Assembly: GCA_039923455.1 (NCBI GenBank)
Contig: JBDTCS010000091.1
Span: forward strand, 1-43,843
Length of the DNA: 43,843 bases
Direction: 5' to 3'
From: Candidatus Kapaibacterium sp.
GTDB lineage: Bacteria; Bacteroidota; Ignavibacteria; Palsa-1295
Shown: in pieces, positions 3,869-24,676 of the stretch
Layout: every line of letters begins with the position of its first letter
How positions within the stretch are numbered: position 1 is the first letter of the stretch
The notes under the pieces: model-generated
What the model saw: the letters and a program-made list of their open reading frames with translations, nothing else
What the model was told of the DNA's origin: nothing
The model's database searches: none
Position numbers and translations under genes: made by a program

Positions 3869-3902
3869 TAAACAAGCTACATTTTCGAAAGAGAAAACAA
3901 TC

Positions 3903-5024
3903 ATGGCGGATAATATTGCGCCGAGTGGATCGAACAAGCCCGGTGAATCGAACAAGCCCGGTGAATCGAACAAGCCCGGTGAATCGAACAAGCCCGGTGG
4001 ATCGAACAAGCCCGGTGAATCGAACAAGCCCGGTGGATCGAACAAGGCAAGTGGGGCCAATAGGCCAGGCACGGGAGGCAGATCGCTCGATGAATTGCGA
4101 GCGAAAACCAAGACTACCAAATTCTCGTCCAAGGGCACTAAGGTAACCGGCGAGAAGAAGAAGGAGAGTCTCTGGCGCTCACTCATCGTTGCGCTTTTGA
4201 TTGCGCTCGTAATACGTGCAGTGATGTTCGAGGCATTTCGTATTCCGACGGGTTCGATGAAGAACACGCTGCTCGTTGGCGATTATTTGTTCGTCAATAA
4301 GCTCGCCTACTTTATTCGCTCGCCAAAATATTTTCCGCTGACTACTACGGAGATTCCGTTCCTAAGTATTCCAACCGGTTCACCTAAGCGCAGTGATGTG
4401 ATCGTCTTCGAATATCCTGGAGATCAAGATCTCGTTGTTCCGCGTGAGAAGAAGATCAACTATATCAAACGTTGTATCGGGATTCCGGGTGATACGGTGC
4501 AAATCATCAACAAGCAAGTCTTCGTCAACGGACAGCGCATGGTAAATCCTGCCGGTATGAATTTCCGCGAGTCCGAAGTGCGACCGAAAAACGAGATTGA
4601 CCCGCATATTTTTCCGCAAGGCGCACCGTGGAATAAAGATTGGTACGGACCGATCAGGGTTCCAAAAAAGGGCGATGTGATAAAGATCACAACCGATAAT
4701 ATTCATCAGTGGGAAGTGTTTGTTGCGCGCGAGGGACATAAAGTCGAGATCGGCAACGGCGGAGTGATCCAAATCGACGGCACGGCACAGAGCAACTACA
4801 AAGTCGAGCGTGACTATCTTTGGATGATGGGAGATAATCGTGACGATTCCGAAGATTCGAGGTTTTGGGGATTCGCTCCCGTCGATAACGTTGTCGGCAA
4901 CGCGCTCTTCATTCATTGGTCGATGTACTGGCCGCCATCATCCGGTTATGGTGACGGCTACGATCCCGATGAAGATCAGCACTTCCACATTCGTTGGGGC
5001 CGCATCGGCAATATTATTCGTTGA
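3903..5024 (+). CDS. lepB: Signal peptidase I with an N-terminal (G/E)SNKPG repeat
   Basis: A TM segment followed by the catalytic Ser box IPTGSM, the Lys box YIKRCIG and GDNRDDSEDSRFWG. It follows lepA, which is the canonical synteny. Confidence 0.97.
   Translation: MADNIAPSGSNKPGESNKPGESNKPGESNKPGGSNKPGESNKPGGSNKASGANRPGTGGRSLDELRAKTKTTKFSSKGTKVTGEKKKESLWRSLIVALLIALVIRAVMFEAFRIPTGSMKNTLLVGDYLFVNKLAYFIRSPKYFPLTTTEIPFLSIPTGSPKRSDVIVFEYPGDQDLVVPREKKINYIKRCIGIPGDTVQIINKQVFVNGQRMVNPAGMNFRESEVRPKNEIDPHIFPQGAPWNKDWYGPIRVPKKGDVIKITTDNIHQWEVFVAREGHKVEIGNGGVIQIDGTAQSNYKVERDYLWMMGDNRDDSEDSRFWGFAPVDNVVGNALFIHWSMYWPPSSGYGDGYDPDEDQHFHIRWGRIGNIIR
3925..4068 (+). repeat. 18-bp in-frame tandem repeat GTG(G/A)ATCGAACAAGCCCG in lepB
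   Basis: Six full units start at 3925, 3943, 3961, 3979, 3997 and 4015 and differ only at one G/A position. A partial unit starts at 4033 and a degenerate one at 4051 (GANRPG). Confidence 0.97.
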
Positions 5025-5034
5025 TCGAAAACAC

Positions 5035-6228
5035 GTGAACGTCGAACCAGGCAACCGAGAACCTAAAAGCACTCAACCGTTGAGTGCGTACCTCCACATA
5101 CCCTTCTGTGAAAAGAAGTGTATCTATTGCGATTTCTATTCGATCGAGAATGTATCGCTGCGCGGAGAATTTGTCGAGTTGTTGTTGCAGGAGATCGCGC
5201 TGAAACTTGCGGCGAGTCCATCGCTATCAGGTAGAACACTGGAGACGATCTTCTTCGGCGGCGGAACACCTTCACTGCTCACTCCGGAAGAACTCGCTCG
5301 CATAATAACGGCGCTGAAATCACATTTCACAATTTCGGAAAATGTCGAGTTCACGCTTGAGTGCAATCCCGGTACCGTCACGCTTGAGAAGCTTTCAGGT
5401 TATCGCGCGCTTGGAGTGAATCGATTGAGCTTCGGCGTGCAGTCATTCGATCAAGCCGAACTTGATTTTCTCGGACGGATTCATAACGCAGCCGAAGCGC
5501 GTGAGGCAGTGCGGCTTGCAAGGGCAGCGGGTTTCGAGAACGTCAGCATCGATCTAATCTTTGCGTTGCCCGGACAGAATGAGGCGACACTCGCGAACAC
5601 ACTTCGAGAGGCGATCGCGCTGGGCACCGACCACATCAGCGCATACAACTTGATCGTCGAGCCCGGCACACCACTTTTTCGGCTGGTGCAAATGAACAAG
5701 ATTATCGAACTCGACCCGGATCGCGCGGCGCAGCTTTTTGATCTAACCCAACGTACGCTCGAAGAGGCAGGATTTGAGCAGTATGAGATTTCCAATTATG
5801 CTCGCTCGACTGCGAAACGAGCTAAGCATAATCTTGTTTATTGGGACGGCGCAAAGGAGTATATATCCTTCGGACCATCGGCGCACGAGTTCCTTGAGGG
5901 CCGCCGCGATTGGAACGTCTCATCGCTCGAACAATACAAGCACATGATCGCCTCAGGCTCACTTCCGATTCTGCAATCGGAAACCCTGACGACCGAAGAG
6001 CGCAGAACAGAAGTTGCCTATTTGCAACTTCGCTCGACCGGCATCGATCTCCTGCAGTTTGAACAGGCCTTTGGTGAAGCACTGATGGACTACGATGAGG
6101 TGCACGCGCTGATTGGGGATGAGATGTTGGTATGGAATGACGGGAAGTTGTGTCTTACGCAAAAAGGCTATCGTTTTTGCGACGGTATCGTGACGAGGTT
6201 GTTACGTCAGGCAGAGTTGGTCGGGTAA
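5035..6228 (+). CDS. hemW: Radical SAM heme chaperone HemW (HemN-like)
   Basis: YLHIPFCEKKCIYCDFYS (CxxxCxxC), FGGGTPS, YEISNY and the HemW-type HNLVYW motif. I placed the start at GTG5035, just after the lepB stop, rather than at 4840; the exact start is uncertain. Confidence 0.9.
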   Translation: MNVEPGNREPKSTQPLSAYLHIPFCEKKCIYCDFYSIENVSLRGEFVELLLQEIALKLAASPSLSGRTLETIFFGGGTPSLLTPEELARIITALKSHFTISENVEFTLECNPGTVTLEKLSGYRALGVNRLSFGVQSFDQAELDFLGRIHNAAEAREAVRLARAAGFENVSIDLIFALPGQNEATLANTLREAIALGTDHISAYNLIVEPGTPLFRLVQMNKIIELDPDRAAQLFDLTQRTLEEAGFEQYEISNYARSTAKRAKHNLVYWDGAKEYISFGPSAHEFLEGRRDWNVSSLEQYKHMIASGSLPILQSETLTTEERRTEVAYLQLRSTGIDLLQFEQAFGEALMDYDEVHALIGDEMLVWNDGKLCLTQKGYRFCDGIVTRLLRQAELVG

Positions 6229-6324
6229 TTGGAAGGCTGGAAGGCCGGAAGATTCGGTGGTCGTTCAAGATTGGACTTATTTGGTAGTCCATTTTTTCTT
6301 TTTCAAAGTTCACTGCAATAATTA

Positions 6325-9258
6325 GTGCAAACACGAAAAGTACACTACGGATTTGCGATCGCAAGTTTTCTGATCGCATTGGTGACCTATACTCTCACGA
6401 TGCAACCGACGATCCCGTTCTGGGATTGTGGTGAGTTCGCAGCTGCGGCCTTTAGTCTCGGCGTACCGCATCCACCGGGGGCACCTCTCTGGACGATCAT
6501 CGGCCGGTTGGGTATGCTTATTCCGACATTTACCGATCCGGTCGCTCGATATAATTTTCTCTCGGTTCTCAGTTCTGCGCTGTCGATCCTATTGCTCTAT
6601 CTTACGATCGTTCGTTTGATCAAGATGTTTCGTGGCGCTCCGAAGAACACCGCCGACATGCTAACTACCTTTGGTGGAGCATTTGTTGGCGCGCTTGCCT
6701 ATGCGTTCACCGACAGTTTTTGGTTCAATGCACTTGAGTGCGAAGTGTACGCATTCGGATCGCTCTTTATCTCGCTTGTACCATGGTTAATTCTTGTCTG
6801 GCATGATCACGCTGACGAACCACACAGTGAAAAATATTTGCTCTTGATCGCGTATGTGATCGGCTTATCACTTGGTGTCCATCAACTCGCACTACTTACG
6901 ATATTCCCCGTATGGATGCTCGTCTATTACAAGCGCTGGCCGAAAACAACCGTCAAAGGTTGGTTGCTGATGGTACTCAGCTCCGTAGTTGCTTTCGCTT
7001 TGATCTTCAAGATCGTGCTTTCTGATCTGGTCGACTGGGCAGGCAAGGGCAACGGGATTATCTCGCTCGTTATTCTCGTAGGCGTTATCGTCGGAATTTT
7101 CTGGAGCCAGCAAAAGAAGAAGCCGATGGTTAATCTCGCGCTTTGGGCAACAATTTTGATCTTCCTCGGCTATACGAGTTATACGCTCGTGATGGTGCGT
7201 GCGCATCAAGATCCACCGATGAACCAAGGGCGCCCGACCACATTTGAGAAGCTTGCAGGTTACATTAATCGCGAACAGTACGGTGAAGCGCGCGAACTTC
7301 CGCGTCGCTTGAAAGATCAGGAACGCGATCATGCGAATACTTGGCAGAATTATTCAAGCGATTGGGACTTTTTCATTCGCTATCAAACCAACATGATGTT
7401 CCACCGTTATCTCGGATGGAATTTCATCGGACGCACAACCGACGATCAAGGTGCGGGTGTCGATCTCTCCAAGACGTGGGCACTACCATTCATACTTGGT
7501 GTCTTCGGAATGTTCTGGCACTTCCGTCGAGACCCCAAACGTGCGCTAACTATATTAGGTACGTTTATCATCATGGGATACCTGACCGATTGGTATCAGA
7601 ATCAGCAAGACCCGCAACCTCGAGAGCGAGATTATTTCTATGTCGGCGCATTTTATTTCTTCGCAATGTGGATCGGCATCGGTGCGACCGGAATCATGGA
7701 GTGGGTTCGCAATCGAAAATCCAAAGCTGCGGAATCTGATGCAGCATTGTTTGAGGAAAATCCGAAGACCGGTTTGGTCGGCGGAATATTGATTGGTCTG
7801 CTTGTGCTCGTGCCGATCAACATGTGTATCGGATTGGCAGGGCTCGTGACGGGGCAGCCATTTAGTCAATCTTCGAAATGGGCAGAATACTCACGCGCAA
7901 AGAATTATATTCCGTGGGATTACGCTTATAATATTTTGCAGTCCTGTGATCAAGATGCGATCCTGTTTACCTATGGCGACAACGACACATTCCCGCTTTG
8001 GTGCTTGCAGGATGTCTATGGAATCCGTCGAGATATTCGTATCGTGCAACTCTCGCTCGCGAACCTGCCATACTATGTTAAGCTATTAAAGAACGATCAT
8101 CCCTGGGGTGCCAAAACAATCACGCTGCCAAGCTACTCCAACGAAGTGCTGGATATGCCGGAGCAGGAGGGAATGTATGCCGTCCCGATTCGTCCGAAAG
8201 AGGTCGTGATGAACCTCGATGCGAAGTCGGTGCAATGGATCATGGGTGATTCGAGTGCGAGTGCAGCAGTGATGCATTGGAGTGCAAATCCACGTCAGCC
8301 ATCGGAACAGTTGATAGTAGATATCATTGAGAATCATCTGAAGGATCGTCCGATCTATTTCTCGGCGACTGTCGCGGAAGGTTCGTACGTTGGGCTCGGT
8401 AAATTTCTTGTGCATGAAGGAATGGCCGCTCGTGTGACACCTATCGAGCAAGCGCCCGATCAAACCCAAGCGGGATTAGGTGGCTCGATTAACGAAAAAC
8501 GCTATCTGCGATCGGTGTATCACATTCCTTCGGAGCCGCATCTTGGTCCTGATCGTGGAATGATACTTCGAACCTACAACGATCCGGATTCGCATCATTC
8601 GGTGCTGGATGATCGGTACTCGATGTCCTATCGGATTGAATATATTCGCCTCGCGAATTATTATCTTGCTCGCGGCAACAAACCGGAAGCAAGTCGCGCG
8701 CTGGATACACTGGATGCACGCATCCCCAACAAACTTGTACCGCTGGAGTATCCGTATTCCTCTATACTTGTCGATCTCTACGATCGTGTAGGTAATTACA
8801 AAAAATCCGCACAGTATGCGAGATATACCGCCGATCTGATTCGCGAAGTCATGAAAGATCCGAATTGGCGCGACAACGATCCGTATGCAAAGCAAATGCG
8901 CGTTGACTTCACATTCGGCGATATGCTATTACGCGCCGGAGAGTACGATTCGGCTGCAGCGCAATTTGAAAGCTTACGCGCGAGTGCTTCGCCGCAAGAG
9001 GCTGGATATTTTGCTGTAAAAGGAGCGGAAGCTATGGCGATGAAGTTAGAATCGCAAGGCAAAAAGAAGGAAGCTTATGATGGATATCACGTGCTTCTGA
9101 CACAGATCGCAAGCCAAGGAGGCGATGCCGGAAGAGAGCTACCCGAAGTACTCACGAGACACGACGCGCTGGCCAAGATGTTGGGCTTACCGCTTTTCGA
9201 TCCTGCGAGTGCAAAGGCGTTAGCACCGAAGGACTCGGCACGGATCTCACAGAAATAG
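6325..9258 (+). CDS. DUF2723 / TMEM260-like GT-C membrane glycosyltransferase, paralog 1
   Basis: N-terminal TM followed by WDCGEF, VPHPPGAPL, ECEVY, GVHQL, YINREQYG, QPRERDYFY and GDNDTFPLW. Multi-TM core with a soluble, helical (TPR-like) C-terminal region. Confidence 0.85.
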   Translation: MQTRKVHYGFAIASFLIALVTYTLTMQPTIPFWDCGEFAAAAFSLGVPHPPGAPLWTIIGRLGMLIPTFTDPVARYNFLSVLSSALSILLLYLTIVRLIKMFRGAPKNTADMLTTFGGAFVGALAYAFTDSFWFNALECEVYAFGSLFISLVPWLILVWHDHADEPHSEKYLLLIAYVIGLSLGVHQLALLTIFPVWMLVYYKRWPKTTVKGWLLMVLSSVVAFALIFKIVLSDLVDWAGKGNGIISLVILVGVIVGIFWSQQKKKPMVNLALWATILIFLGYTSYTLVMVRAHQDPPMNQGRPTTFEKLAGYINREQYGEARELPRRLKDQERDHANTWQNYSSDWDFFIRYQTNMMFHRYLGWNFIGRTTDDQGAGVDLSKTWALPFILGVFGMFWHFRRDPKRALTILGTFIIMGYLTDWYQNQQDPQPRERDYFYVGAFYFFAMWIGIGATGIMEWVRNRKSKAAESDAALFEENPKTGLVGGILIGLLVLVPINMCIGLAGLVTGQPFSQSSKWAEYSRAKNYIPWDYAYNILQSCDQDAILFTYGDNDTFPLWCLQDVYGIRRDIRIVQLSLANLPYYVKLLKNDHPWGAKTITLPSYSNEVLDMPEQEGMYAVPIRPKEVVMNLDAKSVQWIMGDSSASAAVMHWSANPRQPSEQLIVDIIENHLKDRPIYFSATVAEGSYVGLGKFLVHEGMAARVTPIEQAPDQTQAGLGGSINEKRYLRSVYHIPSEPHLGPDRGMILRTYNDPDSHHSVLDDRYSMSYRIEYIRLANYYLARGNKPEASRALDTLDARIPNKLVPLEYPYSSILVDLYDRVGNYKKSAQYARYTADLIREVMKDPNWRDNDPYAKQMRVDFTFGDMLLRAGEYDSAAAQFESLRASASPQEAGYFAVKGAEAMAMKLESQGKKKEAYDGYHVLLTQIASQGGDAGRELPEVLTRHDALAKMLGLPLFDPASAKALAPKDSARISQK

Positions 9259-13296: not shown

Positions 13297-15630
13297 ATGT
13301 CCAAAGCCCAACTCAAACGAACTCAGCCCGCACACCCGAAGTCGCTCGATAGACGCCCGAGCGCAGAGAAGCCGATTCCGGAGATTAATGTTTGGATCGC
13401 CGTCGGCATCTTCGCCGCGCTTGCGCTGATCTTTCATTCTTCGATATTAATGGGCGGAAAATTCCTGTGGGAGGATTTCGTTGAGCAGGAATTTCCATTT
13501 AGAACATTTGCAGCTACAAGCCTCGCGCAAGGTGTGTTGCCACATTGGAATCCGTACATCTTCGGTGGTATGCCTTTTATGGCGGATATTCAGACTGCGT
13601 TCTGGTATCCGACAAATCTTTTGCAAACGCTTTTCGTGTCCGATGGACATCTTTCGGCCGGTGTAATGCAATGGTTCATCCTGATGCACTATGCTGTTGC
13701 CGGAGCGGGGATGTATTTATTTGCAAAGCGAATTCTTGGTGTCGATGATTGGTCGGCGCTATTTGCTGGAATTGCGTATGCGTTCGGTGGCTTCATTGTT
13801 GCGCAGGCGATACATCAGATGATCGTATATCAGATGGCACTCTTTCCGCTTGTCGCGTTAGCATTTATCGCTGGGATCGATAATTGGCGGTACTCGATCG
13901 TGAGCGGAATCTTGCTTGGAGTGATGTATCTCGCCGGTCACCCACAGAGCACGTTGTTCTTTACATTCTTACTTGCGATGCTCGCGATTTATGAACTCAC
14001 ATTCCGAACGATGCGCAAGGAGCGGATGGATGCGGGAGCGATCATTCGAGCCGCAATACCAGTAATTATCGCGATCGGGTTATTTGCGATTCAACTTTTG
14101 CCTTCTCAAGAACTTGCGGGACTCTCGCGGCGTGAGGTGATGACCTATGAGAAGTCGGTCGATGGTTCACTGTCGTTCGGCAATTTACTCACGCTTGTAT
14201 TGCCCAGACTTTTTGGCGTGACGGACGGTGCGCACGAAGCGAAAGTCCCGTTTTGGAACGGAGCCTATTATCTTTCGTGGGAGACGGCGATCTACATCGG
14301 AATATTTCCACTCTTCTTCGGCATTCTCGCGGCAATGCAGAATTGGAAACGCAAATATGTTCCGTTCTTTGCCTGCATGAGTCTCTTCGCGATTCTCTTT
14401 GCTCTTGGCGATCACTTTTTTATCTATCGAATATTCTTTAATCTGCCGCTTTTTGATAAGCTTCGCACTCCGGCACGAATGTCAATGGTGTTCTCATTTT
14501 CGATGTGTGCACTGTCTGCGATCGGGTTTCGAAGTATATTCGAGCGAACAAAGAAAGAGGCAATCGGAACGGGCGCTTTGGTTGGTGCAGGCGCGATAAT
14601 TCTGGTTTGGATATATGCGCTGGTTGGTGGCTTGCATGCGAGTAGTTTTTTGCCGGGTGTAGCTGCCGAGGCGGATGCTTCGATAGGATGGGCTGCGGGA
14701 CTTGCAACATTTCCGGTGCTTGCACTTGCGGCGTATGTGCTCGCTCGGAAATTTTCCGATCTGCGTGGTATGATACTCGCGATTCCCGTTATCGCAGTGA
14801 CGCTCATTGAGTTGTTTACTTATGGAATGGGTCTCAATGCGGTCGCAGATAATCCTGCCGATCTATTTCGTGAGCAGCCCCAACTGATTGATCAGGTCAA
14901 GCAAGATCAAGCGAAAGAGATCACTCGCGCTCGAACGCGTATGGGAAGCCAGATACTCGTAAAGCGCAATCAAGGAGCATACGACCGCATTCAACTCATC
15001 GAGGGATACAATCCGCTTGTGCTGCAGCGTGTTTCACCGGAGACTTTTCCGGAAGAGCAAGCGGATCTGATGAATATTAAGTGGTCGATCATTCAACACG
15101 GACAGCAACCGGATTTTGGTGCGCGGTCAACCTATCTTCCCCGCGTCAAGCTCTACTACAAAACGGAAGTGCGATCCGACACCATGGCGCGCGTCTTGCT
15201 CAAGACTGATTCACTCTTCGACTACCGCAATACGATCTTGATCGAGGAGCAACCTCCTACAGCCGTTGGTCCGCTCGATGCAGCCGGCATAGCGAGCATC
15301 ACACATTACAGCGAGAACGAGATTACTGTGAAAGTAAAAACTGCTGCGCCTGCTATGCTTTTTCTTTCAGAGGTTTATTATCCGGCATGGAACGCCTATA
15401 TCGATGGCGCGCCTTCGAAGATTTATCGTGCTTTTACATCGCTTCGTGCGGTCGAGGTTCCGGCTGGGGAACACACGGTTGTTTTGAAATATGAATCGAA
15501 AGCATTCGCAACCGGAAGTATGATCTCGCTTGCGACGCTTTTGCTAAGCATCGGTGGATTCGTTTTCTTCATGTTGCGTGAAAAGAAAGCGACTCCTGAG
15601 CCAGAACCCGCTGCGCCTGAACAGGCTTGA
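13297..15630 (+). CDS. YfhO-family polytopic membrane protein (putative GT-C)
   Basis: WNPYIFGGMPF..D, YP, GHPQ, YIG, LRTPAR, and the C-terminal SEVYYPAWNAYIDG...AVEVPAGEHTVVLKY followed by a last TM helix. ATG13297 is preferred over TTG13282. Confidence 0.82.
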   Translation: MSKAQLKRTQPAHPKSLDRRPSAEKPIPEINVWIAVGIFAALALIFHSSILMGGKFLWEDFVEQEFPFRTFAATSLAQGVLPHWNPYIFGGMPFMADIQTAFWYPTNLLQTLFVSDGHLSAGVMQWFILMHYAVAGAGMYLFAKRILGVDDWSALFAGIAYAFGGFIVAQAIHQMIVYQMALFPLVALAFIAGIDNWRYSIVSGILLGVMYLAGHPQSTLFFTFLLAMLAIYELTFRTMRKERMDAGAIIRAAIPVIIAIGLFAIQLLPSQELAGLSRREVMTYEKSVDGSLSFGNLLTLVLPRLFGVTDGAHEAKVPFWNGAYYLSWETAIYIGIFPLFFGILAAMQNWKRKYVPFFACMSLFAILFALGDHFFIYRIFFNLPLFDKLRTPARMSMVFSFSMCALSAIGFRSIFERTKKEAIGTGALVGAGAIILVWIYALVGGLHASSFLPGVAAEADASIGWAAGLATFPVLALAAYVLARKFSDLRGMILAIPVIAVTLIELFTYGMGLNAVADNPADLFREQPQLIDQVKQDQAKEITRARTRMGSQILVKRNQGAYDRIQLIEGYNPLVLQRVSPETFPEEQADLMNIKWSIIQHGQQPDFGARSTYLPRVKLYYKTEVRSDTMARVLLKTDSLFDYRNTILIEEQPPTAVGPLDAAGIASITHYSENEITVKVKTAAPAMLFLSEVYYPAWNAYIDGAPSKIYRAFTSLRAVEVPAGEHTVVLKYESKAFATGSMISLATLLLSIGGFVFFMLREKKATPEPEPAAPEQA

Positions 15631-16748
15631 CACAATTATTGAAATCCGCTGAGAAAATTCTGATCATCGCATTGCCCGGTATCGGTGACGCACTGCTGGC
15701 GACGCCGATGATCGAGTTGTTGCGCAGAGCCAAACCGCAAGCCGAGCTGCACGTCCTCGTGATGTTCAAGGCAACGAAGGAAATGTTCGAGGCCGATCCG
15801 TTCGTGGACAAAGTGCACTACTATGATCTGATCGGCGGCAGCAAACTCTCTGCGATCAAAGCAGTTCTCGCACTGCGCCGCGAGGCATTTGATATCTCCA
15901 TAAATATTTATCCCCAGAATCGGCGCGAGTATAATGCAATCGCTTTGATGATCGGAGCTAAGAAGCGCGTTGGCGTTCTCTATCGTCGGCTCGGAACGCA
16001 GAACCTGAATTGGCTCAACACCGACACGATCACCGAAGACGATAGCTTGCATTGTGTGGAAGAAAATGTGAAGCTGCTCACGTGCATCGGTATCAACCAT
16101 GAGCTAACCGAGGCAACACTTCCGCCACTCCGACTAAATCTATCGAGCGATCATTCGCAGTTTGCGAACAATTGGATATCAGAGCATGGCCTCGATGACA
16201 AAAGGCTTTTGATCGGAATGCATGCCGGTACCGCGTTATTCAAGAATCACATTAAGCGCAGATGGGCACCGGAAAAATTTGCAGCGCTCGCAAAACAATT
16301 GACTGCAGATCTCGGAGCAACCGTTTTACTCTTCGGTGGCCCGGATGATATTTCCGCCAACGAGATTATACTTCGTCAGGCAGGGGATAGTGTCACATTC
16401 GTAAAGGCGAGCAATCTTCTCGACTCGGTCGCTGTGATGAAAAAGCTGAACCTCTTCATCTCGAACGACTCGTCGCTCATGCATATCGCTGGTGCACTTG
16501 CGCTTCCGACTGTCGCGATATTTGGCCCGACCAACGAGACCTATGTACATCCCTGGAAGACTCAGTACGAGATCGTCCAGACCGGCATCGACTGCCGCCC
16601 GTGCTTTGTCTATTCCCCAAAACCGCTAACTTGCTATCGCGAGAATCCCGCCGAGCATTTTATGTGCATTCGGGATATTGAGGTTGGGGATGTGCTCTCG
16701 GCGGCTAATAAGCTGCTCGGGAATGACTTGATCACGATCTCACTATAG
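15627..16748 (+). CDS. Glycosyltransferase family 9 (ADP-heptose:LPS heptosyltransferase-like)
   Basis: GIGDALLATP, KRRWAPEKF, SNDSSLMHIA, AIFGPT and CRPC...C...CIRDI. Its TTG start overlaps the TGA stop of the YfhO-like gene. Confidence 0.9.
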   Translation: MTQLLKSAEKILIIALPGIGDALLATPMIELLRRAKPQAELHVLVMFKATKEMFEADPFVDKVHYYDLIGGSKLSAIKAVLALRREAFDISINIYPQNRREYNAIALMIGAKKRVGVLYRRLGTQNLNWLNTDTITEDDSLHCVEENVKLLTCIGINHELTEATLPPLRLNLSSDHSQFANNWISEHGLDDKRLLIGMHAGTALFKNHIKRRWAPEKFAALAKQLTADLGATVLLFGGPDDISANEIILRQAGDSVTFVKASNLLDSVAVMKKLNLFISNDSSLMHIAGALALPTVAIFGPTNETYVHPWKTQYEIVQTGIDCRPCFVYSPKPLTCYRENPAEHFMCIRDIEVGDVLSAANKLLGNDLITISL

Positions 16749-16881: not shown

Positions 16882-16898
16882 ACTGTTTTATGCTAAGA

Positions 16899-17291
16899 AT
16901 GTTACGATTATCGAAACGTGTAGAGTATGGCCTAATGGCGCTGCAGCATCTTGCTCGGCGAGGAGAGGCTTCGACTGTACGCGAGATTTCGGATCAGTGC
17001 GACATCAGCTACGATCTCCTTGCGAAGATCATGCAAGATCTCAAACGTGACGGAATGATCGATTCCTATCAAGGAGTCCGCGGCGGATATGCGCTCCTGA
17101 TGGCCCCAAACCTTATCACGCTGACCCGAGTAGTCGGTGCGATCGAAGGTGATACCGGAATCACGGACTGCGAAGCCGGCACTATAGGCTGCGAACGCTC
17201 CGGTACCTGCCAAATCCAGGGCCCGATGCATAAGTTGCAAGAGACGATCGATCGAGCACTCAGCTCCGTGACAGTTGCCGAGCTACTATAA
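16899..17291 (+). CDS. Rrf2-family Fe-S cluster assembly regulator (IscR/SufR-like)
   Basis: MLRLSKRVEYG, wing motif GVRGGY and three Cys (C-x6-C-x5-C). First gene of the ISC cluster. An alternative start is ATG16890. Confidence 0.9.
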   Translation: MLRLSKRVEYGLMALQHLARRGEASTVREISDQCDISYDLLAKIMQDLKRDGMIDSYQGVRGGYALLMAPNLITLTRVVGAIEGDTGITDCEAGTIGCERSGTCQIQGPMHKLQETIDRALSSVTVAELL

Positions 17292-17317: not shown

Positions 17318-18550
17318 ATGGTAAAGCTTCCGATTTATTTAGATAATAACGCGACAACGCAGATGGATCCGCGCGTCTTTGAGGCGATGCGTCCATACTT
17401 CATGGAGTATTACGGCAATTCAGCAAGCCGAAATCATCCGTTTGGCTGGAAGGCTGAAGAGGCAATAGATTGGGCGCGCGCAACAATTGCGAAGTCAATC
17501 GGTGCGGACGAGAAAGAGATCGTCTTCACAAGTGGTGCGACGGAATCCGATAATCTTGCGATCAAAGGAATTGCCGAGATGTATGCGTCGAAAGGCGATC
17601 ATATTATCACGCTCACCAGCGAGCACAAGGCAGTACTTGATACTTGTAAAGCACTCGAACGCAAGGGCAATCGCGTGACGTATCTTCCGGTTTCGAAGGA
17701 GGGATTCGTTGACCTCGATCAGCTTCGTGATACCATCACCGACAAGACGATTCTTGTTACGATGATGCATGCCAACAATGAGATTGGCGTAATTCAGGAT
17801 ATCGAAGCGATCGGAAGAATCTGCCGTGAGAAGGGTGTGCTGTTTCACACCGATTCAACACAGTCGATCGGCAAGATTCCATTCGACGTGCAGAGACACA
17901 ATGTTGATCTTGCGTCGCTTTCCGGGCATAAGATCTATGGACCGAAGGGCGTAGGCGCGCTTTATGTTCGCAAGAAAAATCCGCGTGTGAAGCTTGCTTC
18001 GCAAATGGATGGCGGCGGTCACGAGCGCGGAATGCGCAGTGGTACGCTGAATGTACCGGGAATCGTTGGGCTTGCCAAAGCACTTGAAATTTGTATTGAG
18101 GAGATGCCGGCTGAGACGAAGCGCGTGACTGCGATGCGCGATGGAATGTGGAAGTCGTTTCAGAATCAGCTTGATGAGCTATACATCAACGGACCCGATC
18201 CAATCGATAAGCCACAGTGGCGCTTACCCGGCAATCTGAACGTGAGCTTTGCTTTTGTCGAAGGTGAAGCGCTTATGATGGGAATCGAGGAAATCGCTGT
18301 TTCGTCGGGATCAGCCTGCACATCTGCTAGCCTTGAACCGAGCTATGTACTCAAGGCTCTCGGTGTCGGCGAGGACTTAGCACATACTTCGATTCGCTTT
18401 GGTATCGGCCGCTTCAACACGCAGGAAGAGCTTGACTACACGGTGAATCACGTGGTGAATGCTGTGCTCAAGCTTCGCGAAATGTCGCCGCTCTATGAAA
18501 TGGCGAAGATGGGTATCGACCTCAAGAGTGTCGAGTGGGCATCGCACTAA
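17318..18550 (+). CDS. iscS: Cysteine desulfurase IscS
   Basis: [22 protein letters not shown] lysine motif [10 protein letters not shown], catalytic SSGSACTS and the C-terminal [10 protein letters not shown]...W..H. Confidence 0.98.
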
Positions 18551-18667: not shown

Positions 18668-19165
18668 ATGATCGACGCAGATATCATAGTAGAAGACCCG
18701 GATGTATTCTTAGGATACATGCGAGAAGCAAAACGCCCGATATTTCATAACTCGAATATTTTCTTTCGAGATATTCAATACGGTGTTCGAGATTATTTCG
18801 AAGATCGCGAAGGCAAAACGATCTCGTCCAAAGAAGCGATTCGTATTGCAAACGATCTGACCCGTTCATACGAGCGGATGGGAGTGTTGCGGAAAGTGAA
18901 CTCGAATGGGTATCTTTTGATCTATCCGGACATGCTCACTCCAAAGGGTGGAACAATCGAGGTGCTAACAGGTGCGACTATCGCACTGCCACCTGCAGCC
19001 GCAGCGCCTGCACCTGTAAAGGCAGCCGCACCAGCCGTTGCAAGCGCACCGAAGCCAATCGCAGCGCCACCTGTAGCAGCTGCAACCGCATCAGCGACAA
19101 GTGCACCGGCAACCGGAGCTATGCCGGCAGGAGCGAAGGCTCCGCCACCATGGCTTAAGAAGTAG
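18668..19165 (+). CDS. Uncharacterised protein between iscS and iscU (globular ~95 aa plus Pro/Ala-rich tail)
   Basis: ATG start, fills the intergenic gap on the operon strand, has an aromatic-rich motif PIFHNSNIFFRDIQYGV and a low-complexity tail ending PPPWLKK. Confidence 0.85.
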   Translation: MIDADIIVEDPDVFLGYMREAKRPIFHNSNIFFRDIQYGVRDYFEDREGKTISSKEAIRIANDLTRSYERMGVLRKVNSNGYLLIYPDMLTPKGGTIEVLTGATIALPPAAAAPAPVKAAAPAVASAPKPIAAPPVAAATASATSAPATGAMPAGAKAPPPWLKK

Positions 19166-19231: not shown

Positions 19232-19645
19232 ATGGCTTACTCAGAGAAGGTATTAGATCATTACTCACATCCGCGCAATGTTGGAACGCTCGATCCGAAC
19301 GATCCGAATGTCGGCACGGGACTTGTCGGTGCACCGGAGTGCGGTGATGTCATGCGTTTGCAACTCCGAATCAACGAAGAGACCGGAATCATCGAAGAAG
19401 CAAAGTTCAAGACGTTCGGCTGCGGTAGCGCGATCGCTTCGAGCTCGCTCGCTACGGAAATGATAAAGGGACTTTCGATTGATCGCGCATTCGAGATCAA
19501 GAATACCGAACTTGTAAAAGAGTTGAATTTGCCACCGGTCAAAATCCATTGCTCCGTGCTCGCTGAAGATGCGATCAAGGCAGTGATCGATGACTACCGT
19601 AAGAAGCAAGCGAAAGTGCACGAGCAGCAAGCGGTGAACGCATAA
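19232..19645 (+). CDS. iscU: Fe-S scaffold IscU
   Basis: MAYSEKVLDHY..PRNVG, APECGDVM, KTFGCGSAIASSS and LPPVKIHCS. Confidence 0.98.
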   Translation: MAYSEKVLDHYSHPRNVGTLDPNDPNVGTGLVGAPECGDVMRLQLRINEETGIIEEAKFKTFGCGSAIASSSLATEMIKGLSIDRAFEIKNTELVKELNLPPVKIHCSVLAEDAIKAVIDDYRKKQAKVHEQQAVNA

Positions 19646-19689: not shown

Positions 19690-20097
19690 ATGGAAATGAC
19701 AGAAGTAATGACCGCGCCTCCTTCACTTGCCGATACGACGGTCGAGAAAGCATTCGAGAACCTGAACGAAGAGCTTCATGTGACCGAAAAGGCACGTGAG
19801 GAAATTCTTAAGATCATGGCTGCAAACAAGATCCCCGATACCTACGGACTTCGCGTTGGTGTCAAAGGTGGCGGTTGCTCCGGTCTTTCGTACTCGCTTG
19901 GTTTCGATGGCGAAATGCGTGAAGGCGATAAGACGATCGAACAGGACGGAATTCGTATCTTTATCGATGCGAAATCGTTGTTCTATCTTTCGGGTACAGA
20001 TCTCGATTTTACCGATGGCCTGAACGGTCGCGGATTCGTCTTTAGCAATCCGAATGCTTCGAAGACCTGTGGTTGCGGAAGCTCCTTCGGTGTTTAA
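19690..20097 (+). CDS. iscA: A-type Fe-S carrier IscA/HesB
   Basis: LRVGVKGGGCSGLSY and NPNASKTCGCGSSF. Confidence 0.95.
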   Translation: MEMTEVMTAPPSLADTTVEKAFENLNEELHVTEKAREEILKIMAANKIPDTYGLRVGVKGGGCSGLSYSLGFDGEMREGDKTIEQDGIRIFIDAKSLFYLSGTDLDFTDGLNGRGFVFSNPNASKTCGCGSSFGV

Positions 20098-20171: not shown

Positions 20172-20771
20172 ATGATCGACCATTTCAAAGTATTTGGTAT
20201 TCCGCGAAGTCTCGGCTTAGGTCGGGATTCGCTCGAGTCAAGATTTCACGATCTTCAGCGCGAGACGCATCCGGATAAATTCGCCGAAGCCGATCATCTT
20301 CAATTAGAAGAAGCCCAGGAGGCATCGGCAGAAGTGAATCAGGCGTATCGCGTGCTTCGCGATCCACTTGCCCGCTTGAAGCATTTGTTGTTGCTCTACG
20401 GGTATTCTGTCGGAGCGTCAAAGCAAATTCCGCAATCGCTCTTGTTTTCCGTCATGGATGCGCAAGAGAAGATCGCAGAGATGGAGTTTAGCAAAGATGC
20501 AAAGCAAAAGGTGCGTATTGCGGGTGATCTTGACACAACAGCCAAGGGTTTTGAATTGCGCCTCGAGACATTGCAGAAGGAGCGACTCGAACTCAGCGCC
20601 CGCTGGGATGGGAGTGTAGCGCATTCGGAAAGTGCTGAAGCATTAAGTGCAACTGAGAAAACGATCTTAGAAAAATTTGTCGAATTGCTCGTGGAGCAAT
20701 CCTACATCGAAACGCTACTTGCTACCGTCCGTGCTGCCCAAAAAGGAGAGTCTGCCGTGATCCGTCACTGA
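20172..20771 (+). CDS. hscB: Fe-S co-chaperone HscB
   Basis: J-domain with HPDKF and NQAYRVLRDP..R, followed by a helical C-terminal domain. ISC context. Confidence 0.92.
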   Translation: MIDHFKVFGIPRSLGLGRDSLESRFHDLQRETHPDKFAEADHLQLEEAQEASAEVNQAYRVLRDPLARLKHLLLLYGYSVGASKQIPQSLLFSVMDAQEKIAEMEFSKDAKQKVRIAGDLDTTAKGFELRLETLQKERLELSARWDGSVAHSESAEALSATEKTILEKFVELLVEQSYIETLLATVRAAQKGESAVIRH

Positions 20772-20821
20772 CAAACGTGCCTCCTTTTGCACTCAAACAC
20801 AAACCCCACACGAGACCGATT

Positions 20822-21406
20822 GTGACGTCCAAGTACATACAAGCATCCCTAAAAGAGGCAGCAGATTGCCTGGAAACTTTCCTGAAAGATCCCGCAACGA
20901 CTTTGCAGATCGAGGCATTCGTCGAACTGTTACAATCTACCTTTGAATCGGGACACAAAGTTTATTCTGCGGGCAATGGTGGAAGCCACTGTGACGCAAT
21001 GCATTTCGCAGAAGAGTGGACCGGCCGCTATCGCAAAGACCGAGCGCCCGTCGCTGCGCTCGCGTTCAGTGATGTTTCGCACATGACTTGCACCTCAAAC
21101 GATTACGGTTTTGAGCACGTATTTGAGCGTATGATACAAGCCTTCGGAGGTTCGGATGATGTGTTCCTCGCGATAACAACTTCGGGCAATAGTAAGAATC
21201 TGATCCTTGCAGCAGAAGCCGCGAAAGCGAAGGGTATGAAAGTTGTCGGTCTCCTTGGAAAAAGCGGTGGTGCCCTTAAAGATCTTTGTGATATCGCAAT
21301 CATCGTACCAGGTGCTACCAGCGACCGCATTCAGGAGTTGCATATTAAGATTATTCATATCGCGATCGAGTGCACAGAGCGTCTGATGTTTCCGGAGCTC
21401 TACTGA
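20822..21406 (+). CDS. gmhA: D-sedoheptulose-7-phosphate isomerase
   Basis: GNGGSHCDAMHFAEE.TGRY, NDYGF, TSGNSKN and DRIQELHIKIIH. The start is GTG20822 or GTG20777. Confidence 0.93.
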   Translation: MTSKYIQASLKEAADCLETFLKDPATTLQIEAFVELLQSTFESGHKVYSAGNGGSHCDAMHFAEEWTGRYRKDRAPVAALAFSDVSHMTCTSNDYGFEHVFERMIQAFGGSDDVFLAITTSGNSKNLILAAEAAKAKGMKVVGLLGKSGGALKDLCDIAIIVPGATSDRIQELHIKIIHIAIECTERLMFPELY

Positions 21407-21450: not shown

Positions 21451-23349
21451 ATGCCTCTTCAGATCACACTACCCGGCCAATCGAACGACACTTCCGAAAT
21501 CAAGGAGCGTGTGGTCGGTATTGATCTCGGCACGACCAATTCGCTGGTCGCGTATGTCGATAATGGTGTTGCGAAAGTTATCCCGGGTGCCGATGGCGGA
21601 CTCGTGCCTTCAGTCGTAACGATCGATGACGGCGGCAATGTAATCGCGGTTGGCGTTAAAGCAAAAAAGCACGCGCTTGCTGATGCCGCGCACACGGTTT
21701 ATTCGGTGAAGCGCTTGATGGGCAAATCCTATCAAGATGTGAAGAAAGAGGCGAATTTGCTTTCGTATCGATTGAGTGCAGAGGGCGATGGACTTGTTCG
21801 AGTGCAGATCGGTGCAAAGGAATACACACCGATCGAACTATCTGCGTTTGTCCTGAAAGAATTGAAATCGCGCGCCGAAGATTATTTTTCCGCACCTGTC
21901 ACAAAAGCGGTGATCACGGTGCCGGCCTATTTCAATGATGCACAGCGTCACGCTACGAAAGATGCAGGCCGATTAGCAGGCTTGGAAGTATTGCGTATTG
22001 TGAGCGAGCCAACCGCAGCAGCGCTTGCGTATGGTCTTGATCAAAAACGTGACGGGCTCATTGCAGTGTATGATCTCGGTGGTGGCACGTTTGATATCTC
22101 GATTCTGAAAATATCGAACGGTGTGTTCGAAGTGCTTTCAACGAATGGCGATACATATCTTGGCGGAGATGATGTCGATCGTAGATTGATGGAAATGTTC
22201 ATCACGCAGATCGAGCGCATGCATCCAACTTTTGTTGCGACCGGCGAGAACTTGCAACGCATTCGCACAGCCGCCGAAGCCGCGAAGATTGAGCTCTCGA
22301 GCAAATCGCAATCGCTCGTGCAGATCGACTTTCCCGAACTCGGCATTGCGTATCATCGCAATCTGACGAAAGCAGAACTCGAGACGATCGCGAACGGAAT
22401 TCTTGAGCGCACACGCAAACCATGCGAAGACGCAATCAAAGATGCGGGAATTACTCGTGAAGATATAGACGAAGTTGTGCTCGTAGGTGGCGCAACTCGG
22501 ATGCCGCAGGTTAAAGCGCTGGTGCATGAGATCTTCAAGTTGAAGCCGCACGACGAACTCAATCCGGATGAAACGGTTGCGCTCGGAGCTGCAATTCAAG
22601 CGGATGTGCTCGCAGGCAATACGAAAAATGTATTGCTGCTCGATGTTACACCGCTATCCCTCGGAATTGAAACCGTTGGTGGAATGATGAGCGTACTCAT
22701 TCCACGAAACACAACCATTCCAGCGAAGGCAGCGGACAACTATACAACATTCGTCGACAATCAAACCGGTGTCGAGATCAATGTGTATCAAGGTGAGCGA
22801 GATTTCATTCGTGATAATCGCAAACTTGCAGAGTTCACACTGAAGGGCATTCCGCCACTACCGGCTGGTGCTGCCAAGATTGAAGTAAGCTTTCTCATTG
22901 ATGCTGACGGAATTTTACATGTGAGTGCTCGCGAGACACACACCGGCATCGCGCAAGAAGTTGAGGTGAAGCCTTCGTACGGATTGACGGATGAAGAAGT
23001 CGAACGCATGTTAAAGGAGTCGATTCTCTTTGCGCAACAGGATATCGGCGAACGAAGATTGGTCGAGGCGAAAACGGAAGGCGAGCGTGTGCTTGCTGCG
23101 ACCGAGAAAGTGCTTGGGCAATTGCGTCGAGGACAGATCAGCATTCCCACCGCGAAGTTGCAGAAGCTGAATGTTGGGCAAGTAATCGACACGCTCTACG
23201 CATTGCGCCGTGCCTTGCAAGGAGATGATGCGACGCTGATTCAAAAAAATCTGAAAGACCTCGAAGATGCAACGCTTCCGCTCGCGCAAGTGATCATGAA
23301 TGCGAGTGTTTCCGATGCACTCAAGGGTCAGCAAGTTACTCCAGTTTAA
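21451..23349 (+). CDS. hscA: Fe-S assembly Hsp70 chaperone HscA
   Basis: [32 protein letters not shown] and the HscA-typical [12 protein letters not shown] context. Confidence 0.93.
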
Positions 23350-23378: not shown

Positions 23379-23714
23379 ATGCCAACAGTAACTTTTCTTC
23401 CGATGAACGTGACGTGCGAAGCTCTCGTTGGTGAGAGTATTCTGGATGTTGCGCTCGCACACGGCATTGACTTGCAGCATAATTGCGGTGGAGTCTGCGC
23501 ATGTTCAACCTGTCACGTCAAGATCCGCAGTGGGAGCGATCAACTCACGGAAATGGAAGACGATGAAGCCGATCAGTTGGACGAGGCCGAGGGGCTCGCG
23601 CTCGAATCAAGGCTCGGATGTCAGGCGTTGATACTGAGCGATGTCGATGTTATCGCAGAGATCCCCCAATTGAATCCTGCGATCGCGAAGCTCTTTCACG
23701 AGGGCGCACATTAG
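23379..23714 (+). CDS. fdx: ISC-type [2Fe-2S] ferredoxin
   Basis: HNCGGVCACSTCHV...SRLGCQ. Confidence 0.95.
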   Translation: MPTVTFLPMNVTCEALVGESILDVALAHGIDLQHNCGGVCACSTCHVKIRSGSDQLTEMEDDEADQLDEAEGLALESRLGCQALILSDVDVIAEIPQLNPAIAKLFHEGAH

Positions 23715-23786
23715 TATCCATGAGATCGAAATCTCGTATATTAGGATTGCGATGATGATGCAAGTTTTTGAGAGGTGCGAAGTATG

Positions 23787-23993
23787 ATGTGGACTGATAT
23801 TGAAGATATTGCGATAGCGCTACAAGAAGCGCATCCCGAGGTAAATCCGTTGGAGATTCGTTTTACCGATCTCTTACGTTGGATCGGCGAGCTGCCGGAG
23901 TTCGAGGATGACATTCATTCTTCGAATGAAAAAAAACTCGAAGCAATGCAAATGGCCTGGTATGAAGAGTGGCAGGATGCTAACAAAGCGTAA
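23787..23993 (+). CDS. iscX: Fe-S assembly protein IscX
   Basis: WTD.EDIAIAL.E.HP..NP..IRFTDL..W...L.EFEDD....NEK.LEA.Q.AW. The start is ATG23784 or ATG23787. Confidence 0.93.
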   Translation: MWTDIEDIAIALQEAHPEVNPLEIRFTDLLRWIGELPEFEDDIHSSNEKKLEAMQMAWYEEWQDANKA

Positions 23994-24007: not shown

Positions 24008-24676
24008 ATGGCTGAAGAAACTCGAATACCTTTGTTTCCGCTTGGTGTCGTACTCTTTCCGGAGTCACGAGTGCCGTTGCATATATTCGAAGAACGGTAC
24101 AAGACGCTCGTTGAGGAATCGCTAAAGCAGAGCACGCCATTCGGAATAAATTATGTAGAGGATGATCGCTTGCATTCCGTTGGATGCGCGGCGCATGTTG
24201 TCGAAGTGACCGAGACGCACGCTGACGGAAAGCTTGATATCATCACGGAAGGCGAACGCCGATACGAGGTTATTGAACTTGAGCAGAACGGTCCTGAAGA
24301 ATTGTCTTACGCACGAGTTCGCTGGCTTGATGATGTTGTCGAAGAGCGAGATGAGAAACTGACCGAAGAGACGATCGAGCTTTTTAACGAGCTGACACGT
24401 GTTGCCTATAAAGGCTCCATCGATCCGCTCGATCTCGATCTTTGGACTGGGGAGAACATGCTGCCTTCGTTCACGATTGCGCAGAAATCGGGGCTGGAAG
24501 CGCCACAACGCCAGGCATTGCTCTCGATCACAAGCGAAAATGAGCGTCTTTCGATGCTACACAGCTTTTTGATGCAGCTATTACCTAAGGTCCGCGAGAT
24601 TGAGACGATCAATGATCTGATCAAAAATGACGGCTATATCGTCACCTGGAACAAGCGCGACCGACCGGAAAACTGA
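24008..24676 (+). CDS. Stand-alone LON peptidase substrate-binding (N-terminal) domain protein
   Basis: IPLFPLGVVLFP...PLHIFEERYK, VGC and RQALL....E.ERL. No AAA+ or protease domain. Confidence 0.88.
   Translation: MAEETRIPLFPLGVVLFPESRVPLHIFEERYKTLVEESLKQSTPFGINYVEDDRLHSVGCAAHVVEVTETHADGKLDIITEGERRYEVIELEQNGPEELSYARVRWLDDVVEERDEKLTEETIELFNELTRVAYKGSIDPLDLDLWTGENMLPSFTIAQKSGLEAPQRQALLSITSENERLSMLHSFLMQLLPKVREIETINDLIKNDGYIVTWNKRDRPEN

Follow-up and report, generated by a model that had tools for sequence, protein, structure and literature searches.

In a 43,843-nucleotide stretch of a Candidatus Kapaibacterium genome (GenBank assembly GCA_039923455.1, contig JBDTCS010000091.1, positions 1 to 43,843 of the forward strand; hereafter the window), a gene that we call ORFX (18668..19165, + strand) lies between iscS and iscU in an operon for iron-sulfur (Fe-S) cluster biogenesis. 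We found that ORFX founds an unnamed, class-restricted family belonging to the Fe-S biogenesis operons of Kapaibacteria and Ignavibacteria; the family adds a conserved component, without a name so far, to the ISC and SUF operons of one bacterial class. Its product, 165 amino acids followed by a stop codon, joins a predicted winged-helix domain to an Ala/Pro tether and a putative C-terminal docking peptide, and this peptide recurs on a subunit of the Rieske/cytochrome b (bc) complex encoded in the same genome. In our estimation the chances are about even that ORFX serves as an adaptor for Fe-S biogenesis specific to its lineage, with a tail that docks on a receptor common to ORFX and the bc complex.

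ORFX defines a new family in Fe-S biogenesis operons

The ORFX reading frame runs from an ATG start to a TAG stop and encodes 165 residues with zero cysteines, with PIFHNSNIFFRDIQYGVRDYF as its N-terminal sequence and PPPWLKK at its C-terminal end; translation and composition thus confirmed the cysteine-free 165-residue frame described in the initial annotation of this DNA. ORFX is a real gene rather than a chance frame, because it has many homologues and because codons vary synonymously over an unchanged PPW[LMV]K[KR] motif. A homologue search at E<=0.01 returned 90 clusters, all labelled 'hypothetical' and derived from metagenome-assembled genomes of Kapaibacteria, Ignavibacteriota and Bacteroidota, and 118 representatives of 50%-identity clusters matched ORFX at E<=0.001 among 1.84 billion proteins. 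When a collection of species-representative genomes was scanned, 210 of the 213 pattern-matched stretches were ORFX loci. Of 401 genomes sampled across the phylum, 71 had ORFX, each in one copy and all (71/71) in the window's class, and most families of this class have the gene (e.g. 8/8, 21/22 and 10/10). The 3.55 Mb genome from which the window derives (G000) likewise carries a single copy.

No known family accommodated these proteins, in agreement with the initial annotation, which had been unable to assign a name. ORFX had zero Pfam matches at E<=0.1, and when 113 members were compared with Pfam no family was common to more than 3 of them, those matches being at E ~1e-3, and no helix-turn-helix (HTH) or winged-helix family, Rrf2 or Complex1_LYR was among them. 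NCBIfam gave ORFX only a chance match to the linker of biotin carboxyl carrier protein (E 1.6), a sequence-profile search of the PDB with ORFX gave nothing usable (best E 0.12), and the ESM Atlas returned only the family's own unnamed clusters together with generic winged-helix look-alikes. Fused or longer forms were not found with either the whole protein or the tail alone, a weak negative given that Ala/Pro-rich words crowd the candidate lists. We also found no published description of ORFX or of the shared tail, including in work on iscS in Ignavibacteria, with subscription journals falling outside the coverage; the main text of PMC3362086 makes no mention of 'cysteine desulfurase' or of any term starting with isc or suf.

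To define the gene neighbourhood, the isc proteins of the window were mapped onto 80 loci drawn from the 210. A Fe-S gene directly adjoined ORFX in 77 of these 80 loci; of the remaining three, two reach a contig end and one (L067) has a start called too far upstream. The upstream neighbour was iscS in 60 loci, iscR in 8, none of the query genes in 10 and a contig edge in 2, while the downstream neighbour was iscA in 28, iscU in 24, the gene for a stand-alone Lon N-terminal domain protein (LonN) in 1, none of the queries in 22 and an edge in 5. Pfam analysis of two example loci from the last 'none' group revealed either sufB or a superoxide dismutase gene (sod) followed by sufCBDSU. In the window the operon reads iscR-iscS-ORFX-iscU-iscA-hscB-(SIS)-hscA-fdx-iscX, and four example loci analyzed with Pfam gave the further arrangements iscR-iscS-ORFX-sufB-(sufC)-sufD-sufS-sufU, iscR-iscS-ORFX-iscA-sod-LonN, ORFX-iscA-sod and iscR-ORFX-sod-sufCBDSU. 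Since ORFX occurs in both ISC and SUF operons, the family is tied to Fe-S assembly generally and not to the iscS-iscU pair as such. The position between iscS and iscU that the initial annotation emphasized therefore describes the window and the Kapaibacteria-type operons (24/80 loci), whereas elsewhere iscA (28/80), sufB or other genes follow. Its proposal of a lineage-specific IscS/IscU partner fared similarly: lineage specificity and embedding in Fe-S operons were borne out, but specificity for IscS/IscU was unsupported, as ORFX is also found in SUF-type operons without IscU or HscBA, and the ORFX-iscA-sod units have no iscS nearby.

A search of 5 SUF-type or short-form genomes recovered no CyaY. 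ORFX was rejected as a CyaY substitute for the window genome, which has its own cyaY gene (G000:C222:4369-4668), distinct from ORFX.

The terminal peptide is conserved and varies by clade

The tail of ORFX consists of a tether at residues 105-158 (18980..19141, + strand), which is 67% Ala+Pro over 54 residues and predicted to be disordered from its predicted local distance difference test (pLDDT) scores, and an overlapping conserved terminal peptide at residues 153-165 (19124..19162, + strand), PAGAKAPPPWLKK-COOH, which is shared with the end of a cytochrome b6-like protein encoded in this genome. The Pro/Ala linker of ~55 residues noted earlier thus corresponds closely to this stretch. Across the window and 19 PPW loci, synonymous differences affect the Pro, Leu/Met and Lys codons but leave the peptide constant, indicating that the terminal peptide is translated and under purifying selection.

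Tail classes were assigned over the 80 locus proteins. The largest, Short (n=38), comprises proteins of 91-135 residues, of which ~30 are 91-110 residues long and consist of the winged helix and a handful of further residues; the others are extended at the C-terminus but bear neither motif. The PPW class (n=19) ends in PPW[LMV]K[KR], sometimes followed by N, and the LPPL class (n=17) carries 1-5 LPP[LI] motifs, in repeat units of roughly [KR]P.LPP[LI].S[AS][KR]P[AV]G, with many members ending in LPPL[KR]GNY[TK]PAGKK. Six proteins have other long tails. In a tree of the N-terminal domain, PPW forms fell within one well-supported clade of 22 rows (99/94), LPPL forms fell within another of 21 rows (95/94), and short forms made up the Ignavibacteriaceae/Melioribacteraceae part. 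Tail type thus follows clade membership, and the loci cannot be counted as independent cases.

Several further features of the tails were apparent. The PPPWMKKN-type tails (L015-L020, e.g. L017:5962-6567) are not Ala/Pro-rich and have a second conserved segment in mid-linker (about L-P-I-A-P-P-x-N-A-E-x-G-H), possibly another docking site. A third tail type (L023:5980-6444, L025:5974-6567, L061:5995-6645 and P0088), found at loci with hscBA and without the SIS gene, is made up of one or two amphipathic Lys/Ala/Glu-rich helix-like segments (about A-K-I-A-E-L-Q-A-[RK]-M-A-A-A-K-A-K). Short forms also have recurring ends, P-G-D-P-[LF] in one group and K-K-A-[SG] in another (examples being L024, L026, L037, L045 and L055, and L030, L043, L050, L066 and L079), which might be minimal docking motifs. 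A DNA-coating role like that of histone H1 was rejected for the tail, as the 54-residue tether holds only 3 Lys.

The motif recurs on one subunit of the bc complex in each of two lineages

Only 2 of the 24,202 stop-to-stop frames of at least 60 residues in the window genome end in PPW[LMVI][KR][KR], namely ORFX and a 346-residue cytochrome b6-like subunit (G000:C182:1658-2698, equal to L132:1658-2698, + strand; Pfam Cytochrome_B, 4.7e-43) that has an Ala/Pro-rich C-terminus followed by GGAGKAPPPWLKK. The operon on this contig begins with a 2x[4Fe-4S] ferredoxin gene (Fer4, 301-777) and a Rieske gene (811-1542), and continues after the tailed cytochrome b N-terminal subunit with a cytochrome b C-terminal/subunit IV-like gene (2790-3698) and a multihaem cytochrome c gene (3786-6851). 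Because ORFX and cytochrome b of this genome use different codons for the peptide, their identity does not reflect a recent copy. A degenerate DNA pattern for PPW-x-K-[KR] had matches in 30 of the 35 genomes of the order, compared with 0-2 per genome for a reversed control. When the matches in these 35 genomes were classified by BLAST, a cytochrome b tail was present in 16 genomes, an ORFX tail in 27 and both in 14, and 3 matches were due to chance; the bodies of the 16 tailed cytochrome b proteins were 89-96% identical. The tailed cytochrome b has, in addition, a conserved Pro-rich N-terminus (about K-L-P-F-V-P-P-K-P-P-P).

In the LPPL lineage the motif lies on a different subunit of the same complex. 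Searching with the pattern LPPL....P[AV]G identified the Rieske protein as a second locus in 2 of 5 LPPL genomes, and in 9/9 genomes examined the Rieske protein (L143 (-), L144 (+), L145-L147 (+), L155 (-), L156 (+), L157 (-) and L158 (-)) carries 1-3 LPP[LI]xS[AS][KR]P[AV]G units in an N-terminal extension directly ahead of its RK/RR-x-FL signal-anchor. This Rieske protein is an orthologue, 50-55% identical to that of the window genome, and the cytochrome b orthologues of the LPPL lineage are tail-less frames of 268-274 residues. In keeping with how b6-type cytochromes and Rieske proteins are known to lie in the membrane, we take both the motif-bearing C-terminus of cytochrome b and the motif-bearing N-terminus of Rieske to face the cytoplasm. 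In the searches made, the motif was found on no further proteins beyond ORFX and one bc subunit per lineage.

The bc-complex side was examined in 59 genomes: 50 were reached from the 80 loci, five more belong to the LPPL lineage, and the order sample supplied the others. Genomes reached through loci may be incomplete. An orthologous Rieske was present in 3 of 25 short-form genomes (L030, L050 and L066), and in these three genomes there was no motif on ORFX, on Rieske (0 LPP[LI]) or on cytochrome b (frames of 259-271 residues). L050 and L066 form the sister group of the LPPL clade, and L030 branches beside the PPW clade. Two members nested in the LPPL clade, L039 and L048, carry motif-free tails, and searches of both genomes recovered no Rieske orthologue. 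Ignavibacterium album has alternative complex III instead of a cytochrome b-Rieske complex, according to PMC3362086. Taken together, the motif on the bc subunit appears or disappears together with the ORFX tail on approximately three branches.

These findings agree with the docking-like character that the initial annotation had ascribed to PPPWLKK: judged from its sequence pattern, the terminal peptide appears to behave like a docking motif, being conserved under synonymous change and recurring on a second, unrelated protein.

The N-terminal domain is predicted to be a winged helix

An AlphaFold2 model built from the 113-sequence alignment had pLDDT values of ~95 for residues 1-92 (18668..18943, + strand) and 59-70 for the rest. 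DSSP assigned H11-20, E30-32, H33-48, H54-71, E74-76 and E81-84 to this model, an H1-b1-H2-H3-b2-b3 order with a b-hairpin wing (H-H-b-H-H-b-b over the whole of residues 1-92), and a second AlphaFold2 model based on 75 close relatives had the same topology, with pLDDT <50 in the tail and 65 for the last five residues. As modelled, residues 1-92 have the fold of a winged helix, and the wing suspected in the initial annotation is present in both models. Foldseek, which the initial annotation had suggested, found no match in the PDB at E<=0.001 for this domain. VIA-align against 48,161 chains reached a best Z of 6.7, and all of the top rows were winged-helix domains, both DNA-binding (DpnI, GntR, ETS and Rok) and protein-binding (MukF, kleisins, cullin WHB and MCM8). 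Since the matches are to generic winged helices only, the fold names no function.

The most conserved patch spans residues 26-38, FHNSNIFFRDIQY (18743..18781, + strand), and runs through a loop and strand b1 into the start of helix 2. Its consensus is FHxSNxFFRDxQY (F26-H27-x-S29-N30-x-F32-F33-R34-D35-x-Q37-Y38), in which F32 and D35 are 100% conserved in the 113 sequences, S29 98%, R34 97% and N30 96%. Cys is not conserved at any position: no column has it in more than 3 of the 113 sequences. Helix 3, the would-be recognition helix, carries conserved Glu residues in these sequences (E58, 81%; E69, 73%), which fits protein binding better than DNA binding, and from this conservation pattern we infer that the domain is a protein-binding module. 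This polar patch occurs in all members of the family and is unchanged in the tail-less ones. The winged helix was ranked low as the motif's own receptor, because AlphaFold2 predicts no docking of the tail and the patch does not change where the tail is missing. A complex prediction for an IscS dimer with ORFX residues 1-100 scored 0.00 in both runs, which, made without controls, is evidence neither for nor against an interaction.

A possible tethering role and candidate receptors

The presence of a common tail on ORFX and on the Rieske/cytochrome b complex shifts the likely role of ORFX from a tuner of IscS to a tethering or targeting adaptor. In such a scheme, the winged-helix domain would bind the Fe-S machinery encoded around it (desulfurase, scaffold or carrier), and the tail would be a docking peptide on a tether, for a receptor recruited by the bc complex as well. 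ORFX could in this way bring Fe-S assembly or transfer and an Fe-S-containing respiratory complex to the same partner, a scheme that would resemble the client-guiding motifs of mitochondrial Fe-S delivery.

Our leading guess for the receptor is an Hsp70, which would be HscA here and DnaK where HscA is absent. An Hsp70 is the first candidate in view of the likeness between these motifs, [LP]PP[LWV] with a Lys after it, and the LPPVK of IscU, the peptide that HscA recognizes (PMC6506825). PPW tails occurred only where hscB and hscA were in the locus (17/17 loci with enough flanking sequence, compared with 0/14 LPPL loci), and the IscU of PPW loci carries LPPVK. Another candidate would be a chaperone related to twin-arginine translocation (Tat), since the Rieske extension abuts the RR/RK-x-FL signal. 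The window genome encodes HscA, a DnaK-like protein (C297) and a third, divergent Hsp70-like match (G000:C260:3531-4667, + strand) with 36% identity over residues 22-405 in an 850-residue open frame.

The fullest version of this scheme is a client-targeting system of Kapaibacteria and some Ignavibacteria in which one lineage-specific motif, displayed on long disordered tethers by ORFX and by a bc subunit, recruits a common receptor, most plausibly HscA or DnaK, and so brings the assembly machinery and the respiratory client together at the membrane; we put this forward tentatively and regard it as a minority possibility. If true, it would be a bacterial, independently evolved counterpart of the LYR-motif/HSC20 guidance of Fe-S clusters to mitochondrial complex III, and if the shared receptor exists and is a Fe-S chaperone, it would be a new kind of bacterial client-targeting system. 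How Fe-S clusters are directed to clients is well worked out only in mitochondria, through LYR motifs and HSC20, and is largely open in bacteria. The putative docking peptide offers a clear, testable handle, being 7-12 residues long and present on just two proteins per lineage, and natural controls exist in sister lineages free of the motif on both proteins and in one genus with the motif and without the complex. The receptor's identity would show whether bacteria use motif-guided Fe-S delivery and would test whether LPPVK-like peptides recruit Hsp70 to clients outside IscU.

Several observations weigh against an adaptor with a receptor shared by the bc complex. Three families of the class have no ORFX (f6, 0/6; f11, 0/12; f14, 0/3), and one genome lacking it has an iscR-iscS-iscA-sod-LonN operon in which iscA starts at the iscS stop; with nothing between iscS and iscA, ORFX looks like an insertion that is dispensable there. 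As tail classes follow clades, the co-variation of the two tails rests on about two gains and one loss, which are few independent events. The PPPWMKKN genus keeps its tail, although an orthologous Rieske was found in 0/6 genomes (E<=1e-30) and its cytochrome b homologues are only 34-42% identical; the receptor is therefore not the bc complex itself, and coupling to that complex is not obligatory. Two PPWL genomes (2.2-2.3 Mb), possibly incomplete assemblies, also gave no Rieske match. With regard to an Hsp70 receptor, the loci L023, L025 and L061 have hscB and hscA but a different, helical Lys/Ala-rich tail, and the peptide of the window differs from LPPVK in reading PPPWLKK. Genomes of the LPPL lineage (5/5) lack HscB and encode just one Hsp70, so that the receptor would have to differ between lineages, HscA in one and DnaK in the other, and the SufU of the LPPL lineage lacks LPPVK. 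Finally, the winged-helix domain is mildly basic, with a median pI of 8.9, which would be compatible with its binding nucleic acid.

Alternative explanations for ORFX

ORFX could instead be an IscS modulator like IscX or CyaY, with a winged helix that binds IscS and tunes sulfur release and a tail that is a lineage add-on irrelevant to Fe-S assembly. IscX is itself a small helical protein with a winged-helix-like fold. The commonest upstream neighbour of ORFX is iscS (60/80 loci), and IscX, CyaY, ferredoxin and HscB share a binding surface on IscS (PMC6506825). Nevertheless, 18 of the 80 loci have no iscS directly upstream (iscR in 8, none of the queries in 10), the window genome already has both IscX and CyaY, profile comparison with IscX gave a probability of only 0.7%, and modulation of IscS would leave unexplained why the tail motif is common to one bc-complex subunit in two lineages, so we consider this explanation unlikely. 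Less probable again is a DNA- or RNA-binding winged-helix regulator that acts with Rrf2/IscR on the isc/suf operon or on respiratory genes. The fold itself, the many DNA binders among its structural neighbours (GntR, DpnI, ETS and Rok), the basic pI of the N-terminal domain and the location of ORFX directly after iscR in 8/80 loci would all suit such a regulator. The conserved residues, however, lie off the recognition helix and the wing, helix 3 bears the conserved E58 and E69, 0/113 members match an HTH or winged-helix Pfam family, and protein-binding winged helices (cullin WHB, MukF and kleisins) are equally good structural neighbours; to our knowledge, long Ala/Pro tethers with terminal peptides are also unusual for bacterial repressors.

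The tail itself could be read in two other ways, both of which we consider improbable. ORFX might be a proteolysis or quality-control adaptor resembling SspB, with a domain for binding apo or damaged Fe-S proteins and a C-terminal peptide for docking to an AAA+ protease or the LonN protein. SspB docks on ClpX via its C-terminal peptide, and a domain followed by a ~55-residue flexible linker and a basic-hydrophobic C-terminal peptide would match its architecture by analogy; a stand-alone Lon N-terminal domain gene also recurs in Fe-S clusters. LonN was, however, not found in LPPL-type loci within the flanks covered, and the LPPL-type motif also occurs in the N-terminal region of Rieske, implying that a free C-terminus is not required. 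The least probable reading that we considered is that the tail anchors an electron-supply enzyme, either a ferredoxin or its reductase, at the n-side of the b6-type complex and at the machinery for Fe-S assembly, which requires reduced ferredoxin, much as the Pro-rich repeats of plant Tic62 and TROL hold ferredoxin-NADP reductase. The motifs are repeated, Pro-rich and within a disordered tail, a [2Fe-2S] ferredoxin is among the products of the window operon, a 2x[4Fe-4S] ferredoxin gene opens the bc operon in the PPW group, and Fe-S assembly by IscS-IscU uses ferredoxin and ferredoxin-NADP reductase (PMC4547094). Against this, the Fer4 gene adjoins Rieske in the PPW group only and not in the LPPL group, and no reductase candidate was identified.

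Other genes of the operon

The genes of the Fe-S cluster around ORFX in the window are all on the + strand. The operon opens with an IscR-like regulator of the Rrf2 family (16890..17291; Pfam Rrf2, 7.8e-31; NCBIfam rrf2_super), followed by the cysteine desulfurase IscS directly 5' of ORFX (17318..18550; NCBIfam NF010611, 652 bits against a cut-off of 548). Directly 3' of ORFX is the scaffold IscU, with its LPPVK motif (19232..19645; TIGR01999, 212 bits against a cut-off of 192), and then come an IscA-type carrier (19690..20097; Pfam), the co-chaperone HscB (20172..20771; Pfam and NCBIfam), a GmhA-like SIS-domain protein (20777..21406; 228 bits, under the equivalog cut-off of 265), the Fe-S specific Hsp70 HscA (21451..23349; Pfam and NCBIfam), a [2Fe-2S] ferredoxin (23379..23714; Pfam) and IscX (23775..23993; Pfam Fe-S_assembly, 1.5e-28). 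The last gene of the cluster encodes a stand-alone Lon N-terminal (substrate-binding) domain protein (24008..24676; recognized by Pfam and without an NCBIfam name).

No terminator-like site flanking ORFX was found in a promoter/terminator scan, which detected fewer sites than in shuffled sequence; this absence is weakly consistent with co-transcription of ORFX. Among 24 listed sequencing runs, no RNA run containing the stretch appeared; 20 DNA runs, from sediment or rhizosphere metagenomes, contain it.

The SIS gene was inserted between hscB and hscA at 15/15 PPW-class loci with enough flank and was absent at L023, L025 and L061, where hscBA is present. A heptosyltransferase (GT9) gene lies just 5' of iscR (15627-16748), so the SIS gene may simply belong to the heptose pathway and have become lodged here. 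The stand-alone Lon N-terminal domain protein is a second unexplained, conserved passenger of these Fe-S operons, its gene also closing Ignavibacteria operons after sod (e.g. L045:7479-8144). In Ignavibacteria-type operons a Fe/Mn superoxide dismutase gene directly follows iscA or ORFX (L045:6602-7366, L031:6642-7370, L027:6397-7023 and L082:3117-3743).

Comparison with known systems

IscX (YfhJ; PF04384) and CyaY (PF01491) are small Cys-free ISC accessory proteins, as ORFX appears to be. ORFX nevertheless has no sequence relation to IscX (hhalign, 0.7% probability over 6 columns) and no profile match to CyaY/frataxin PF01491, and it differs from both in occurring also in SUF-type operons and in having a tether and a putative docking motif that neither carries. 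Nor do ORFX and the 113 members have a profile match to Rrf2/IscR (PF02082) or a conserved Cys of the kind that ligates the cluster of IscR proper. At the level of the fold, generic winged helices (the DpnI C-domain, MukF/kleisin, cullin WHB and the GntR N-domain) share its topology with VIA-align Z scores of 5.1-6.7, over alignments of 63-87 residues with root-mean-square deviations of 2.5-5.7 A and identities of 4-15%, and no match stands out. SspB likewise has a folded domain, a ~50-residue linker and a basic-hydrophobic C-terminal peptide, but only the architecture is alike: the ORFX fold is a predicted winged helix, no search revealed a sequence relation, and the context is Fe-S biogenesis rather than the delivery of ssrA-tagged substrates.

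The closest parallel to the peptide is the LPPVK of IscU bound by HscA (PDB 1U00, per PMC6506825), likewise a Pro-Pro-hydrophobic-Lys peptide in a protein of a Fe-S operon. LPPL-class tails contain LPPLK or LPPIK, akin to LPPVK. The ORFX peptide, in contrast, stands at the free C-terminus of a disordered tail and not in a folded scaffold, and the LPPL lineage has neither HscA nor HscB. LYR guidance works through a short motif, borne by a client or its assembly factor, that draws in the machinery for Fe-S transfer; the clients include a Rieske/complex III subunit. In mitochondria HSC20 binds the LYR motifs of SDHB and LYRM7, the latter being the assembly factor of Rieske. The likeness of ORFX to LYR guidance would be one of analogy, as the motifs are unrelated, the organisms are bacterial and neither ORFX nor the 113 members match Complex1_LYR. 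Taken together, these comparisons of sequence suggest that ORFX is a Fe-S biogenesis accessory factor from a new family, whose new feature is a putative docking motif shared with a respiratory client.

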